Positions 16,018-33,580 of a stretch of 64,000 bases of DNA are shown here, in pieces (positions within the stretch are counted from its first letter, which is position 1; every line of letters starts with the position of its first letter). A program made the position numbers and the translations under genes. Origin of the DNA: a bacterium (GTDB lineage: Bacteria > 4484-113); assembly GCA_021163765.1 (NCBI GenBank), contig JAGGTK010000099.1, forward strand, positions 16,089 to 80,088. Reading direction: 5' to 3'. A model generated the notes under the pieces. That model had not been told where the DNA came from. It made no database searches and worked only from the letters and a program-made list of their open reading frames with translations.

Positions 16018-17148
16018 ATGAAGGCTATTGTTCTCGGTTGCGGCCTTGTGGGAAATGAGATTGCGCGCGACCTGGCGCGGGGCAACGATTTCGCCGTAAC
16101 AGCGGTCGACATCAATGCGGGCGCGCTGAGTGCACTGGGCGACGTGCCCGGCATCACCACTATTGAGGCGAATCTCGCTGAGAGAGATAATCTCATCCAG
16201 CTTGTCAAGGAACACGACATCGCAGCAGTTGCAGTCCCCGGCTTCATGGGGTATCAGACGCTTGAAGCTGTCATCGAGGCTGGGACACACGCTGTAGACA
16301 TCTCCTTTACGCCGGAGGACACGCTGGAGCTGCACGACCGCGCACTCAAAGCGGGTGTCATCGCCGTTGTAGACTGTGGTGTTGCTCCGGGGCTGTCCCA
16401 CGTCCTGGTTGCAGACGCATCCTCACAGCTTGATACCGTTGAGCTGGTAGCCATATACGCAGGGGGATTGCCCGCCAACCCGGAGCCACCCTGGAATTAC
16501 AAGGCGGTTTTCTCGCCGCTGGACGTAATCGAGGAGTACACACGGCCTGCGCGGATCGTCCAAGAGGGCGAGATTGTTACCGTAGACGCGCTATCGGAAG
16601 TGGAGTTCATCCAGCTCCCTGGCATCGGGACCCTTGAGGCTTTTGCCAGCGACGGTTTGCGCTCGCTGTTGACGACAATAAAGGCCGACCGGATGTTCGA
16701 GAAAACTCTGCGTTATCCCGGACATGCGGAGAAGATGCGCAGCCTTCGTGAAGCAGGAATGTTCGGCAAGGATGCCATAGAGGTAGGCGGCGTTGCCGTC
16801 AGGCCCATCGAGGTTATCAGCAAGCTGCTCTTCCCCAGCTGGAAGCTCCGCGAAGGCGATGAGGACATAACCGTCTTACGCGTCATCGTAGAAGGAATGA
16901 AGAACGGCCAGAAGCTCAGCTATACATATGATCTAGCTGACCATTACGACAGAGAGCATCAGATTACATCTATGGCGAGGTCGACGGGCTACATGGCCAC
17001 ATCAGTTGTAAGGCTCATACGCGATGGCGCTTTCACCCGCAAGGGCATCTCCCCACCGGAGTCCCTGGGCATGGAGGAGAGCTGCTATCGCACGCTAATG
17101 CAGTTGCTCGACGCACGCGGGGTCGTAGTCAAACAGCGCGCCGGTTGA
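16018..17148 (+). CDS. saccharopine dehydrogenase family NAD(P)-binding protein
   Basis: An N-terminal Rossmann motif VLGCGLVGNEIARDL and a ~376 aa layout (..VDCGVAPGLSH..RYPGH..) resemble the saccharopine/lysine dehydrogenase-like family. The start abuts the upstream stop. Confidence 0.65.
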   Translation: MKAIVLGCGLVGNEIARDLARGNDFAVTAVDINAGALSALGDVPGITTIEANLAERDNLIQLVKEHDIAAVAVPGFMGYQTLEAVIEAGTHAVDISFTPEDTLELHDRALKAGVIAVVDCGVAPGLSHVLVADASSQLDTVELVAIYAGGLPANPEPPWNYKAVFSPLDVIEEYTRPARIVQEGEIVTVDALSEVEFIQLPGIGTLEAFASDGLRSLLTTIKADRMFEKTLRYPGHAEKMRSLREAGMFGKDAIEVGGVAVRPIEVISKLLFPSWKLREGDEDITVLRVIVEGMKNGQKLSYTYDLADHYDREHQITSMARSTGYMATSVVRLIRDGAFTRKGISPPESLGMEESCYRTLMQLLDARGVVVKQRAG

Positions 17149-29453: not shown

Positions 29454-29557
29454 CTGCGTGGTTTTCGATGCGGTGACTATTATACCGTAAGGATGTGAGG
29501 GAGCTTCAGTTACGCGGGGTTTGGCAGGCAAATGCCAAAGGGTATATACTCTGTGGG

Positions 29558-30739
29558 ATGAAAGGGTTTGTTGCCAGGGTTTTCTCCGCTCTGCTGGGCG
29601 GGCTTGTGGGGTTTGCGATCGCGCTCTACTCCTCCAGCCTGTTCGAGCCGCCGGTCCGAGCGTGGGAAGGGATACTGCGAGATTACGCGACTTCAATTCC
29701 CCCGGTATTCCTGGAAGGTGAAGGTGTTACTGACTTTCTGAAGTCCCTGGATAGATTCAACGGCTACGTGATCATAGCCTTTGTAGTGCTGGGCTACTTG
29801 ATGACGCCGTTTGTCGAGATAGGCCTCACGGCGCTGAGTGGTTTGGTGCAGAAGTTGCTTGCGGGGGTCACCCGCCAGCGTTTCATCGCAGGCGCGGTCG
29901 GCTTTCTGGGTGGAGTGCTGGTATCGTTCTTCCTGCTGAATGTTCCGCTTTTCTTCTACCTTAACAGCCTGTCAAAAGGTTTCTGGAATTCCGAGTTCGT
30001 GATTGTGTTGTTAAACGCGTTGGTGCTAATAAGCTTCGGTTACATCGGCGGTTTCATTACGACGAACATCTTTTACCCAACAAGCAGCCGTGAGTCGATC
30101 CTCTCGCTTTACGAAGTGGAAGCGAAGCCCAGGATACTGGACACTTCAGTGATAATAGACGGCCGCATTACAGAGATTGTGCGCAGTGGATTCGTCCCCG
30201 GGCTGCTTGTTGTCCCGAATTCCGTAATAAGAGAAATGCAATTGATAGCGGATTCTTCAGACCAGATAAAGCGGAACAAGGGGCGGCGGGGACTGGAGAT
30301 CCTCAAGAACCTCCAGGAGAGTGCGGCGAACCCGGTGCATATCTACGATGACAGCAAGTACGACCACGACCACGTAGCGGTCGACGAAAGACTAATACTG
30401 ATTGCAGACGAACTGGGCGGTGAAGTTGTTACAAACGACTACAATCTCAACCGCGTTGCAGGCATAAGAGACATCAGGGTCCTGAACATCAACGAGTTAG
30501 CTAATGCGGTGAAGCCGATGGTCATACCCGGCGAGACGCTGGTGGTCAGCGTGATCCGCGAGGGCAAAGAAACGGGACAGGGCGTGGGTTATCTAGATGA
30601 TGGCACGATGGTTGTCGTTGAACAGGGGATGCGCCATATCGGTAGCGTGTGTGAAGTGGAAGTGACTTCAATTATGCAGACTGTGGCCGGAAGGTTGATT
30701 TTTGGGCGGGTCCGCAAAGTGCTGAAAAGCCAGGTGTGA
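29558..30739 (+). CDS. PIN/TRAM-domain membrane protein, YacL-like
   Basis: N-terminal TM helices, then ILDTSVIIDGRI...TNDYNLNRVA (PIN) and a C-terminal TRAM-like GETLVVSVIREGKE..GVGYLDDGTMVVVE. It sits upstream of ispD-ispF, as yacL does in Bacillus. Confidence 0.75.
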   Translation: MKGFVARVFSALLGGLVGFAIALYSSSLFEPPVRAWEGILRDYATSIPPVFLEGEGVTDFLKSLDRFNGYVIIAFVVLGYLMTPFVEIGLTALSGLVQKLLAGVTRQRFIAGAVGFLGGVLVSFFLLNVPLFFYLNSLSKGFWNSEFVIVLLNALVLISFGYIGGFITTNIFYPTSSRESILSLYEVEAKPRILDTSVIIDGRITEIVRSGFVPGLLVVPNSVIREMQLIADSSDQIKRNKGRRGLEILKNLQESAANPVHIYDDSKYDHDHVAVDERLILIADELGGEVVTNDYNLNRVAGIRDIRVLNINELANAVKPMVIPGETLVVSVIREGKETGQGVGYLDDGTMVVVEQGMRHIGSVCEVEVTSIMQTVAGRLIFGRVRKVLKSQV

Positions 30740-30742
30740 TCA

Positions 30743-31465
30743 GTGGATAGTCAGCGAAGAGAGTGCGGGGTCAGCGTGATTCTTCTCGCCGGCGGCAGCG
30801 GCAGGCGCTTTGGCACGACCGTTCCGAAACTCCTTGCGAGCGTGAAGAGCAAACCGCTTATTGCATATCCCATAGAAATTGCGCTATCGCTGGAATTCGT
30901 GGATGAACTCGTGGTTGTGTGCCATCCCGGCATAAGAAGGCGAACGGACGAAATAGTCTCCGATATAAAAAGAGCGCCCGCGGGGTCGGTGGATAAGGTT
31001 TTGATCTGTGACGGGGGCGACAGCCGGGCCGCATCGGTTGAGGCCGGCCTGATGCACGCCTCCGGGCGGTGCGTGATGATACACGATGGCGACCGTCCTC
31101 TTGCGACGGCAGGGCTGTATCGTAGGGTCCTAGACGCGCTTAGGCCGGGTACCGGCGTGGTGCCGGCGATGAGGCCAGCGGACTCGGTTATTCAGGAGGA
31201 TCAGGCAGGACCCTCGATTGGCTACCTGCCACGACATAAAATGCTGCTGGCACAAACCCCCCAGGCGTTTTTCACCGAAGAATACCGCGCGGCACGCAAG
31301 GGAGTGCAGTCGCGCGGCGAGCAGCACACTGATGACGGAAGCGTTTTCGCTGCAAACGGCGGCAGTCTGGTGACCGTACCGGGCGAACAAAGCAACGTTA
31401 AAGTGACGTTCCCCGTGGACATACGCGTCGTTGAATTTTACCTGGATGCGATGAAGGATGAGTAG
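30743..31465 (+). CDS. ispD: 2-C-methyl-D-erythritol 4-phosphate cytidylyltransferase
   Basis: VILLAGGSGRRFG..PK...HDGDRP...TPQAF. The start may be a downstream GTG. Confidence 0.85.
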   Translation: MDSQRRECGVSVILLAGGSGRRFGTTVPKLLASVKSKPLIAYPIEIALSLEFVDELVVVCHPGIRRRTDEIVSDIKRAPAGSVDKVLICDGGDSRAASVEAGLMHASGRCVMIHDGDRPLATAGLYRRVLDALRPGTGVVPAMRPADSVIQEDQAGPSIGYLPRHKMLLAQTPQAFFTEEYRAARKGVQSRGEQHTDDGSVFAANGGSLVTVPGEQSNVKVTFPVDIRVVEFYLDAMKDE

Positions 31466-32444
31466 ACGGGTACGAAGGCGAATTGGCACCGGGTTCGATA
31501 TTCACCGCACAAAGCGGGGTGCGCCGCTGATGCTGGGTGGCGTGAATATCGAGTGTGATTTCGGGCTGGTCTCGGAGACCGACGGTGACGTAGTCCTGCA
31601 CGCGCTGGCGGACGCGGCCCTGGCGGCTGCTGGCGAACCCGATATCGGAATACTCTTTCCCGCCAAGGACCCGCGCCATGCAGGAATGGCCAGCAGCGAA
31701 CTCGTGGCGGCTGTTATGGTGAGAGTAACAGAACGGGGACTGGAGCTGGAACAGGTGGACGTGACGATACTTGCGGATCTGCCGCCGCTGTCCGGGCATT
31801 ATGGCGCTATGCGAGAAAAGATAGGTGAATTAACAGGGCTATCCAGGGAAGATGTATCGGTTAAGGCTCGCACCTGCGAGGGGCTGGGCGATATCGGAGC
31901 CGGTAAGGCGATTGCAGCCACAGTCATCGTGATGGGTGTCATTGTTGATGTGGAGGCTGGCTTGAGCGACTCGGACAGTAATGATGTGTTTGACGGCAAG
32001 TTCCCTCTGGAACACGTGGGCGAGATACCGCAAGGGGCAGTGGTCGTGAACGTTGACGGCGGCAGCAGAGGCAATCCCGGTCCCGCCGCAGCCGCGGCGG
32101 TTTGCCGCAATGCAAGCGGTGAAGAGCTGTTCTCGGATGCTAGATATCTGGGCAAGACGACCAATAACGTTGCAGAATACGAAGGAGTAAGGCTTGGTCT
32201 TTCGTTGCTCTCGGAACGGAACCTTCAAGATACGGAAATCGTGATATGCCTTGATTCTAGTCTAGTCTTCAATCAGCTTATAGGCAGGTATCGCATCAAG
32301 GATGCACGGCTGAGAGAGCTGGCGCGTAAGGCGCTAGGCGAACTTAAGCCGTTCACCAAATTGAGCCTGAAGCTGATTCCCCGTGAGGAAAACGATGTGG
32401 CTGACAGGGCAGCGAATCGCCTGCTTGACAACTATTCTAAGTAA
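31458..32444 (+). CDS. ispF: 2-C-methyl-D-erythritol 2,4-cyclodiphosphate synthase fused to a type-1 RNase H domain
   Basis: Residues ~7-165 read RIGTGFDIHR...TDGDVVLHAL...DIG.LFP...VDVTI (IspF). Residues ~197-325 read VNVDGGSRGNPGPAA...NNVAEYEG...CLDSSLV...NDVADRAAN (a complete RNase H DEDD set). It is a single uninterrupted ORF. Confidence 0.8.
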   Translation: MSRRVRRRIGTGFDIHRTKRGAPLMLGGVNIECDFGLVSETDGDVVLHALADAALAAAGEPDIGILFPAKDPRHAGMASSELVAAVMVRVTERGLELEQVDVTILADLPPLSGHYGAMREKIGELTGLSREDVSVKARTCEGLGDIGAGKAIAATVIVMGVIVDVEAGLSDSDSNDVFDGKFPLEHVGEIPQGAVVVNVDGGSRGNPGPAAAAAVCRNASGEELFSDARYLGKTTNNVAEYEGVRLGLSLLSERNLQDTEIVICLDSSLVFNQLIGRYRIKDARLRELARKALGELKPFTKLSLKLIPREENDVADRAANRLLDNYSK

Positions 32445-32680
32445 TCACGGGTTACCGTGAGGTTGTCATGCAGGGCTATCGCCTCGGGGTCACCAATGTT
32501 CCTGGCGATAGCTTTTCGCACCGACCTCAGCCGACGGCCCAGGCTTCGTGGCGTTACACCGATCATCCGGGCCAGGTCACGGCGGGACAGCCCCGTTAGG
32601 TAGACGGCTTCAAACAGAGCGAAGTCCTTTATTGAGTGCCGCAGATGTTCGAGGAGCCGCGCGAAATCAGGATGATACAA
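32432..32680 (-). CDS. small HTH protein resembling sigma-70 region 4
   Basis: 82 aa. LTGLSRRDLARMIGVTPRSLGRRLRSVRKAIARN. Divergent from the LexA-like gene. Confidence 0.4.
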   Translation of the reverse strand: MYHPDFARLLEHLRHSIKDFALFEAVYLTGLSRRDLARMIGVTPRSLGRRLRSVRKAIARNIGDPEAIALHDNLTVTRDYLE

Positions 32681-32744: not shown

Positions 32745-32771
32745 TTGACAAACGGCGCACATCATTATAAC
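32745..32771 (+). promoter_or_regulatory. candidate promoter of the LexA-like gene
   Basis: TTGACA (32745-32750), a 15-nt spacer, then TATAAC (32766-32771). Flanked by the inverted copies ACGTTGTAG (32717-32725) and CTACAACCGT (32777-32786). Confidence 0.3.
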
Positions 32772-32803
32772 ATACCCTACAACCGTATAGTAACAGGTGC
32801 CAT

Positions 32804-33580
32804 ATGGACCTCAAAAGCATTGTGCGAAGGGGGCGGTTGGAACTGGGGTTGTCCGCTCGAGCGCTCGCGCAGACTATTGGCGTGTCGCATTCTTACATCT
32901 CGCAAATCGAAAGAGGCGTAATCAAACGTCCGTCGCCAATGGTCCTAAAGCGGCTTGCCGAAACACTCAAGGTAGTGCCGTATTGGGAGTTTCTGAGAGC
33001 GTGCGGTTACACGTACGGAACAGAGGGTGAAGAACGAGGGGAGAGCGCCATAGAATCGGTTGAGAGGCTTGGGGATAAAAGGAGACATACGCTAGCCAAA
33101 CGCCTGTGGGAGGTGGCGGCTGAGCTTGGCCATACTGACGCCATGCCTCCAGTCGCAGGCGCGAGTGCATATAGGCGGGTACCTGTGTTTACCACGATAC
33201 CGGCGTCGTTCGGTGCAGGATCACAGGCTGTCGTTCTTGAATACGACGAGGTTGAGACCACTAGAATCCACGAAAGCAAGCTGAATGGCGACAAGGAAGC
33301 GTTCGCGTTGCGAGTAAAAGGCGACTCTATGGTCGAGGCAGGGATTCTGGAGGGTGACCTGGTCGTTGTGAGTCCGAATACGCCGCACAGGAGCGGTGAT
33401 ATCTGCGTAGTGCGGATCAGTGGCGGCGAACACAGCATCAAGCGGATTGTGCTGCAGGATGATATGGTAATTTTGCAGCCGTGCAACAGCAACTACGAGC
33501 CAGTAGTGATTGAAGAAGGCAGCAAAGATGACCTGCATATATACGGCAAAGTCGTTCACGTAGAGCGCTCATTTCTCTAG
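32804..33580 (+). CDS. XRE-HTH / S24 peptidase repressor (LexA- or CI-like)
   Basis: An N-terminal HTH_3 (LSARALAQTIGVSHSYISQIERG) and a C-terminal S24 domain with VKGDSMVEAGI and a downstream IKRIV lysine. Confidence 0.75.
   Translation: MDLKSIVRRGRLELGLSARALAQTIGVSHSYISQIERGVIKRPSPMVLKRLAETLKVVPYWEFLRACGYTYGTEGEERGESAIESVERLGDKRRHTLAKRLWEVAAELGHTDAMPPVAGASAYRRVPVFTTIPASFGAGSQAVVLEYDEVETTRIHESKLNGDKEAFALRVKGDSMVEAGILEGDLVVVSPNTPHRSGDICVVRISGGEHSIKRIVLQDDMVILQPCNSNYEPVVIEEGSKDDLHIYGKVVHVERSFL

Follow-up and report, generated by a model that had tools for sequence, protein, structure and literature searches.

In a 64,000-nucleotide stretch of contig JAGGTK010000099.1 (GenBank assembly GCA_021163765.1, forward-strand positions 16,089 to 80,088; hereafter the window), which derives from a bacterium of the phylum 4484-113 in the Genome Taxonomy Database (GTDB), one open reading frame (ORF) joins IspF, the 2-C-methyl-D-erythritol 2,4-cyclodiphosphate (MEcPP) synthase of the methylerythritol phosphate (MEP) pathway, to a type-1 ribonuclease H (RNase HI) in a single protein, P0001. 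We think that this is probably a genuine and ancient bifunctional IspF-RNase HI protein, whose IspF body may, less surely, also serve as a platform for the RNase H. The two parts of this reading differ in strength: that the gene is genuine, conserved and bifunctional is, on the comparative evidence presented below, close to certain, while the idea that the RNase H half profits in some way from the IspF body is a tentative proposal that we hold to be slightly more doubtful than probable. An earlier note on this DNA had described one 328-amino-acid ORF with IspF signatures, an acidic linker and RNase H motifs; all of these were located in the translation, and the Pfam and NCBIfam scores exceeded their cut-offs.

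The IspF half is, to judge from its sequence, a full member of the IspF family, and MEcPP synthase activity is predicted for it. It matched Pfam YgbB/IspF PF02542 at residues 8-159 with an E-value of 4.5e-46 and 157.4 bits (cut-off 26.7), and the fusion scored 144.8 bits with NCBIfam TIGR00151 (ispF; cut-off 116.45). The motifs GTGFDIH (residues 10-16), TDGDVVLHAL (41-50) and DIGILFP (62-68) are present, and D14, H16, H48 and E141, the last being the conserved Glu near the C-terminus, were invariant in 15 MEP-type fusion sequences; the Asp-His-His zinc triad of IspF corresponds to D8, H10 and H42 in E. coli numbering. In an AlphaFold2 (AF2) model the predicted local distance difference test (pLDDT) score was about 90 over this domain, and Foldseek superposed it on 5b8f, 2pmp and 1gx1 with a template modelling (TM) score of 0.95 and a root mean square deviation (rmsd) of 1.2 Å, and on many IspF crystal structures with TM scores of 0.93-0.96 and rmsd of 1.0-1.4 Å. 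Compared with the IspF proteins of E. coli (1gx1/1jy8) and P. aeruginosa (5b8f), the domain keeps the fold, the zinc ligands and scores above cut-off. The MEP genes seen in the genome of the window, G000, were the adjacent ispD and IspG at C1:21487-22509.

The C-terminal half matched RVT_3 PF13456 at residues 198-321 (E 6e-18, 65.4 bits; cut-off 21.6) and RNase_H PF00075 at residues 194-275 (29.1 bits; cut-off 25.8), and carries the motifs VDGGS (199-203), NNVAEYEG (236-243), CLDSSLV (264-270) and NDVADRAAN (312-320). Its PDB sequence matches were 3hst (N-domain of M. tuberculosis Rv2228c, E 4e-22), LC11-RNase H1 (3u3g/4h8k), 4e19 and Sulfolobus RNase HI, with E-values for stand-alone RNases HI ranging from 5e-22 to 6e-9. 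The acidic residues of 3hst and 3u3g have their counterparts in D200, E240, D266 and D316, and the inactivating D-to-N change that separates the substrate complex 4h8k from 3u3g aligns with D266. This DEDD tetrad was invariant in 45 of 45 fusion sequences. The PF00075 match stops at model position 76 of 141, and at that place the AF2 model has only a short loop (275-282); the elements of the half run in the order three strands, helix, strand, helix, helix, strand, helix. The RNase H half lacks the alphaC 'handle' helix (basic protrusion), as the profile match and the model show. In a model of the orthologue from genome G011 (L017:3228-4346, plus strand), the RNase H fold superposed on stand-alone RNases HI with TM scores of 0.89-0.95, the value of 0.95 being that to 4e19. 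The stand-alone RNases HI without the basic protrusion, namely LC11-RNase H1 (3u3g/4h8k), Halobacterium RNase H1 (4e19) and the Sulfolobus tokodaii enzyme (2ehg, 3aly), have sequence, fold and the missing handle in common with this half; they are single-domain proteins or bear a short N-terminal extension, whereas the fusion carries an IspF body. RNases HI without the basic protrusion have been reported to show weak activity only (Kochiwa et al., PMC1950709).

The two halves are separated by a linker with the acidic string EAGLSDSDSNDVFDG at residues 165-179 and with pLDDT below 50 at residues 165-182. The model of P0001, built from 15 homologues, had a mean pLDDT of 87.6 and two well-folded domains. 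An alignment of the fusion proteins showed that linker length and sequence differ between families. In family f2 the linker has about 100 residues (L016, L018, L017, L019, L021) and contains, just before the RNase H, the conserved motif LP.RA..FE.A..S.LPPLP, which is predicted to be partly helical.

The fusion is conserved throughout the phylum. Six-frame analysis of whole-genome matches placed both domains in a single frame free of stops in each of the 24 species genomes that made up our sample, the window's own assembly included; in G007 the fusion gene was interrupted just by contig ends. Within the phylum the fusion is kept down to about 24-40% identity. A protein search returned 29 clusters (90% identity) that share this domain composition; they stem from NCBI, JGI, ENA and Logan and reach down to 43% identity. 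When 1.84 billion representative proteins were screened with a profile, this yielded about 25 full-length fusion clusters (50% identity), some metagenomic ones being merely 35-43% identical to the proteins of the phylum. The databases hold at least 45 IspF-RNase H sequences, labelled just 'IspF' or 'ribonuclease HI'. The remark in the earlier note that no IspF fusion was known holds for the literature searched, in which no paper describing an IspF-RNase H protein was found (most subscription journals lay outside the coverage), and fails for the databases, where such sequences stand under partial names.

A chimeric assembly, or a sequencing error erasing a stop or a start between ispF and a separate rnhA, is an a priori possibility in a metagenome-assembled genome, and it has nothing further in its favour: the same unbroken frame recurs in 24 independent assemblies and about 45 protein clusters drawn from the four sources named above, and there is no in-frame start with ribosome-binding context between the IspF and RNase H domains. 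We therefore regard an artefact as next to impossible. The same conservation refutes, for recent time-scales, the alternative offered in the earlier note of two genes run together when a stop was lost, and none of the relatives has a stop between the two domains. Within the window's genus, the ratio of nonsynonymous to synonymous substitution rates (dN/dS) was 0.096 for IspF and 0.10 for RNase H, and among MEP lineages both halves diverge equally, e.g. 39% versus 35% identity. Together with the frame conserved in every genome and the complete set of catalytic residues, the equal constraint on the halves argues for the genuine bifunctional protein that the earlier note had proposed.

Matches to YgbB and to RNase_H numbered one each per genome (24/24) and always fell in the fusion gene, and no second type-1 RNase H was detected in any of the 24 genomes. 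RNase HII was encoded by a separate gene in 23 of them, both congeners of G000 included; it was not found in G000 only, which fits the 78.6% completeness of that assembly. In this phylum the fusion is the one IspF and the one type-1 RNase H, and not the only RNase H; the idea that the cell has no RNase H besides it is ruled out by these RNase HII genes. On the question of another rnhA or rnhB in the genome, which the earlier note had posed, the answer is thus split: rnhA has no second copy anywhere in the sample, and rnhB is present nearly throughout it and missing from the window's own assembly.

The taxonomic families came out with support of 92-100 both in a tree of the RNase H domain and in one of the two domains combined. 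The RNase H domains of the phylum fell on one side of a branch separating them from 44 outside sequences (support 75), which agrees with a single origin and does not prove it. No donor of the RNase H domain can be named because the deep backbone of its tree (138 columns) is without resolved branching. The fusion arose no later than the root of the phylum and has been retained in every sampled genome. A neighbouring ispF and rnhA pair in other phyla was considered as a precursor and rejected, the two matches being unlinked in 17 other-phylum genomes (on different contigs or far apart). Reversed or otherwise arranged IspF-RNase H proteins were likewise discarded: the multi-stretch profile matches (P0134, P0135, P0139 and others) proved to be two to three tandem RVT_3 domains, some with SAP. 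Such tandem proteins, found in metagenomic P0134, P0136, P0139 and P0142 and in some cases bearing an N-terminal SAP DNA-binding domain, are an alternative route to a multivalent RNase HI.

That the IspF body matters beyond its own chemistry is suggested by a clade in which the mevalonate pathway has taken the place of the MEP pathway. IspG was detected in 16 of the 24 genomes, and 3-hydroxy-3-methylglutaryl-CoA (HMG-CoA) reductase in exactly the other eight. In four of these eight, which were searched further and one of which is a single 4.1-Mb contig, no IspH, Dxr, IspE or true Dxs was found, and a mevalonate kinase above its curated cut-off lay next to the reductase, whereas in the sister genus g6 the MEP genes are present and mevalonate kinase is absent. 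HMG-CoA synthase gave weak matches and none in genus g7. The exchange of pathways is concluded because the losses of IspG, IspH, Dxr, IspE and Dxs coincide with the gains of HMG-CoA reductase and mevalonate kinase. In G011 (C1:684811-686934, minus strand), and at equivalent places in G010, G013 and G016, the reductase and kinase matches share an open frame of about 790-890 amino acids. It may be a fused HMG-CoA reductase-mevalonate kinase that heads a cluster of mevalonate genes in which more GHMP kinases follow.

In the same eight genomes, which belong to one family (genera g7, g8 and g9), an alignment of 24 proteins showed that D14, H16, H48 and E141 of the fusion were all replaced, with K136 also among the residues lost, whereas the RNase H tetrad was unchanged. 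The replacements at the first four positions differ by genus (e.g. S/Q/Q/D, E/G/R/H and A/G/Q/A), a pattern that looks like relaxed selection and loss and not like a new conserved site. With metagenomic clusters included, the triad was lost in 15 of 45 fusion sequences by what the tree places as a single change (clade support 98), and P0133, on the earliest branch of this clade, is intermediate (D-E-H). The dead domain is still recognizable: it scored 50-104 bits on Pfam YgbB, the G011 orthologue scored 47.7 bits with TIGR00151, below the cut-off, and the domain was modelled with the IspF fold at TM scores of 0.84-0.90 and 20-25% identity. In genus g7 its dN/dS was about 0.2 as against 0.05-0.07 for the RNase H half, and between the genera of the clade its identity was 30-46% as against 58-67% for the RNase H. 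Eleven columns are conserved in the live and the dead clades alike. No loss or truncation of the dead domain was seen across the three genera and at least 15 sequence clusters, nor was a split of the two domains seen in any genome of the phylum.

The gene upstream has shared this fate. The separate IspD-like gene was retained at the same position in all eight genomes, and in G011 the yacL-like gene still precedes it. The IspD-like proteins have lost the K27-equivalent lysine in 8/8 genomes, and in G016 the P-loop as well; their score was 72 bits (ispD cut-off 181), and their dN/dS of 0.15-0.22 equals that of live IspD. In family f2 every IspD or IspD-like protein, whether live or dead, ends in a conserved tail, KK.KD.KYGGLGW. 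The linker of genus g7 had a dN/dS of 0.11-0.14 and is more constrained than the dead IspF domain.

These findings bear on the first of the two explanations given in the earlier note, a bifunctional protein coupling isoprenoid and RNA:DNA-hybrid metabolism by co-expression. Its bifunctional part stands; co-expression of two activities is insufficient, because the RNase H of the clade without the MEP pathway is live and yet still carries a dead IspF. This retention suggests that the nuclease has come to depend on the IspF body, and we propose a platform because the dead IspF and the dead IspD both stay under selection after loss of the MEP pathway. Proteins of the IspF family are obligate homotrimers. 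The fusion would be translated from a yacL-ispD-ispF operon in coupling with ispD, and its IspF half would form the homotrimer and display three RNase H domains on flexible acidic tethers of about 30 residues; a trivalent RNase H would follow from the homotrimer and the C-terminal position of the nuclease on its flexible tether. Such trivalency could make up for the absent substrate-binding handle. In this picture the IspF body, perhaps in company with IspD, would be an oligomeric platform on which the RNase H relies for avidity, stability or placement. In its most specific form the proposal is that the phylum's sole type-1 RNase H depends structurally on the IspF trimer as an obligatory platform, perhaps bridged by IspD dimers as in IspDF, hence the selected pseudoenzymes of the mevalonate clade; we put this forward as a conjecture on which we would sooner bet against than for.

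Bifunctional IspDF (C. jejuni 1w55, H. pylori 8xhu) resembles the present case in that ispD lies directly upstream of the fusion, with which coupling is inferred, and differs in that the extra domain here is a C-terminal nuclease and not an N-terminal IspD. In IspDF the IspF trimer is the hub of a larger assembly. Membership of IspDF (NF006899) was rejected, ispD being a separate ORF and the score 157 bits against a cut-off of 417. The closest parallel on the RNase H side is mycobacterial RnhC (Rv2228c/MSMEG_4305; PDB 3hst; NF005567), a bifunctional protein of RNase HI and a C-terminal CobC-like acid phosphatase, which belongs to the same RNase H subfamily: 3hst is the best PDB match with the DEDD residues aligned, and NF005567 gave 113.6 bits over the RNase H part. 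Membership of this family was also rejected, since there was no PF00300 match and the match covered positions 4-134 of 378 only, far below the cut-off of 326 bits. Here IspF takes the place of the histidine phosphatase, the RNase H stands at the C-terminus instead of the N-terminus, and in the phylum 4484-113 the fusion is the only type-1 RNase H and a dead yet retained partner exists. RnhC and the present protein are each spread through a whole lineage, tie RNase HI to a metabolic enzyme by a linker that varies, and are under purifying selection in either half (PMC7466739).

This parallel leads to the main rival of the platform, which is drift with passive constraint. The two genes would have been joined once, in a neutral 'Rosetta-stone' fusion fixed by drift, the domains would work independently, and the dead IspF would persist since its deletion would disturb the translation start, folding or solubility of the RNase H. 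The mycobacterial analogue MSMEG_4305/Rv2228c behaves in this way, as removal of the partner domain from the RNase HI-CobC protein changed almost nothing and its authors thought it more likely that drift had fixed the fusion (PMC7466739). The RNase H subfamily of the window is, moreover, promiscuously fused to many enzymes. Against drift, a 160-residue passenger has remained alignable and foldable, with a dN/dS of about 0.2, across the three genera and at least 15 clusters without truncation, and no genome of the phylum has split the two domains. In addition, the dead IspD-like gene, which is not fused, is also kept under purifying selection, and this goes beyond any constraint on the start codon or folding of the RNase H gene. 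On balance we consider drift unlikely, although it is the explanation that deserves most attention beside our own.

Among the nearest relatives of the RNase H domain (P0033-P0121), fusion to other metabolic enzymes is very frequent: the partners include tryptophan 2,3-dioxygenase (PF03301, in dozens of clusters), histidine phosphatase (PF00300), 6-pyruvoyl-tetrahydropterin synthase (PF01242), glyoxalase-type domains (PF00903) and a flavin adenine dinucleotide (FAD) oxidase (PF01565). Several of these partners are oligomeric.

A second rival holds that the dead IspD-like and IspF-like proteins were re-used for another small-molecule or regulatory role, with the RNase H as a passenger, and that the fusion of the window is simply two independent enzymes. 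Purifying selection on both proteins after loss of the pathway would be expected here too, and the conserved tail of the IspD and IspD-like proteins in family f2 fits it. The residues lost, however, are those that serve nucleotide and zinc chemistry (the K27-equivalent of IspD and the P-loop in G016; D14, H16, H48, K136 and E141 of IspF), and their genus-specific replacements resemble relaxed selection. This re-use appears improbable to us, clearly more so than drift.

Several points nonetheless weigh against the bifunctional protein with an IspF platform that we prefer. In the family of the window the linker is poorly conserved, with a dN/dS of 0.42, and its disorder and fast evolution speak for drift. 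The AF2 model has a predicted TM score of 0.52, so that no fixed mutual orientation or packing of the domains is predicted, which likewise suits drift. The dN/dS values given here are pairwise Nei-Gojobori counts from few unsaturated within-genus pairs in GC-rich genomes, and the alignment behind the model of the G011 orthologue, on which the IspF fold of the dead domain was recognized, included live IspF sequences. The mycobacterial result cited above counts on the same side, and the pair of dead IspF-like and IspD-like proteins could be retained for a role that has nothing to do with the RNase H.

Fusions of RNase HI with metabolic enzymes are known from mycobacteria, where the best study took them to be, probably, accidents fixed by drift. 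The phylum 4484-113 offers a cleaner natural test, with a live partner in 16 genomes and a dead, still selected partner in eight that have switched pathway, and whether the partner aids the RNase H can be tested directly with two natural proteins. It also provides a dated example of pseudoenzymes, IspF-like and IspD-like, that have outlived their pathway. Annotation as 'IspF' alone hides the sole RNase HI of this lineage and, in the mevalonate clade, wrongly implies an MEP enzyme. If the same were true of many other handle-less RNases HI fused to oligomeric metabolic enzymes, platform dependence would be a general rule.

Table 1 Features of the fusion locus (positions in the window, except for the last line)
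Feature	Position	Strand	Basis
ispF-rnhA fusion ORF (P0001), 328 amino acids, ATG start	31458..32444	+	Pfam and NCBIfam matches
IspF (MEcPP synthase) domain, residues 8-159; Zn ligands D14, H16, H48	31479..31934	+	Pfam, NCBIfam, AF2, Foldseek
Linker, residues 160-193; acidic and predicted disordered at 165-182	31935..32036	+	AF2, dN/dS
Type-1 RNase H domain without basic protrusion, residues 194-326; catalytic D200, E240, D266, D316	32037..32435	+	Pfam, PDB sequence matches
yacL-like gene, membrane PIN-TRAM protein; first in the conserved yacL-ispD-ispF order	29495..30739	+	ORF, Pfam
ispD (MEP cytidylyltransferase), separate ORF	30743..31465	+	Pfam IspD, E 5.6e-38
Overlap of ispD stop and fusion start, 8 nucleotides, ATGAGTAG	31458..31465	+	ORF list and sequence
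IspD-like gene upstream of the dead-IspF fusion	L017:2350-3231 (G011); same position in G010, G013-G018	+	Sequence comparison

The surroundings of the fusion gene agree with the yacL-ispD-ispF order and the overlap of the ispD stop with the fusion start that the earlier note had reported. The ispD stop codon, TAG, occupies 31463-31465, and the fusion starts in a different frame within the overlap; since an overlap of 8 nucleotides is typical of translational coupling, we infer that the fusion is coupled to ispD. A scan of the ispD-fusion stretch for promoters and terminators found none between the two genes. The product of ispD has the P-loop GGSGRRFG and the lysines, and scored 164 bits with TIGR00453, below the cut-off of 181. 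In the YacL-like protein of the window, TRAM (20.8 bits) and PIN (17.3 bits) were both slightly below their Pfam cut-offs; in the G011 orthologue, at the same position, TRAM was above the cut-off (27.2 bits) and PIN slightly below it.

An Rfam scan of the whole window gave no family at gathering score, neither a tRNA nor rnpB, and 13 related loci gave one tRNA only. Just 3' of the fusion, a gene for a small helix-turn-helix (HTH) protein on the opposite strand (32432-32680, minus) overlaps the stop of the fusion. It faces the 5' side of a gene for a repressor with an XRE-HTH and an S24 peptidase domain (LexA/CI-like; 32804-33580, plus), and a promoter-like sequence, TTGACA-17-TAACAT, lies between the two at 32745-32773.

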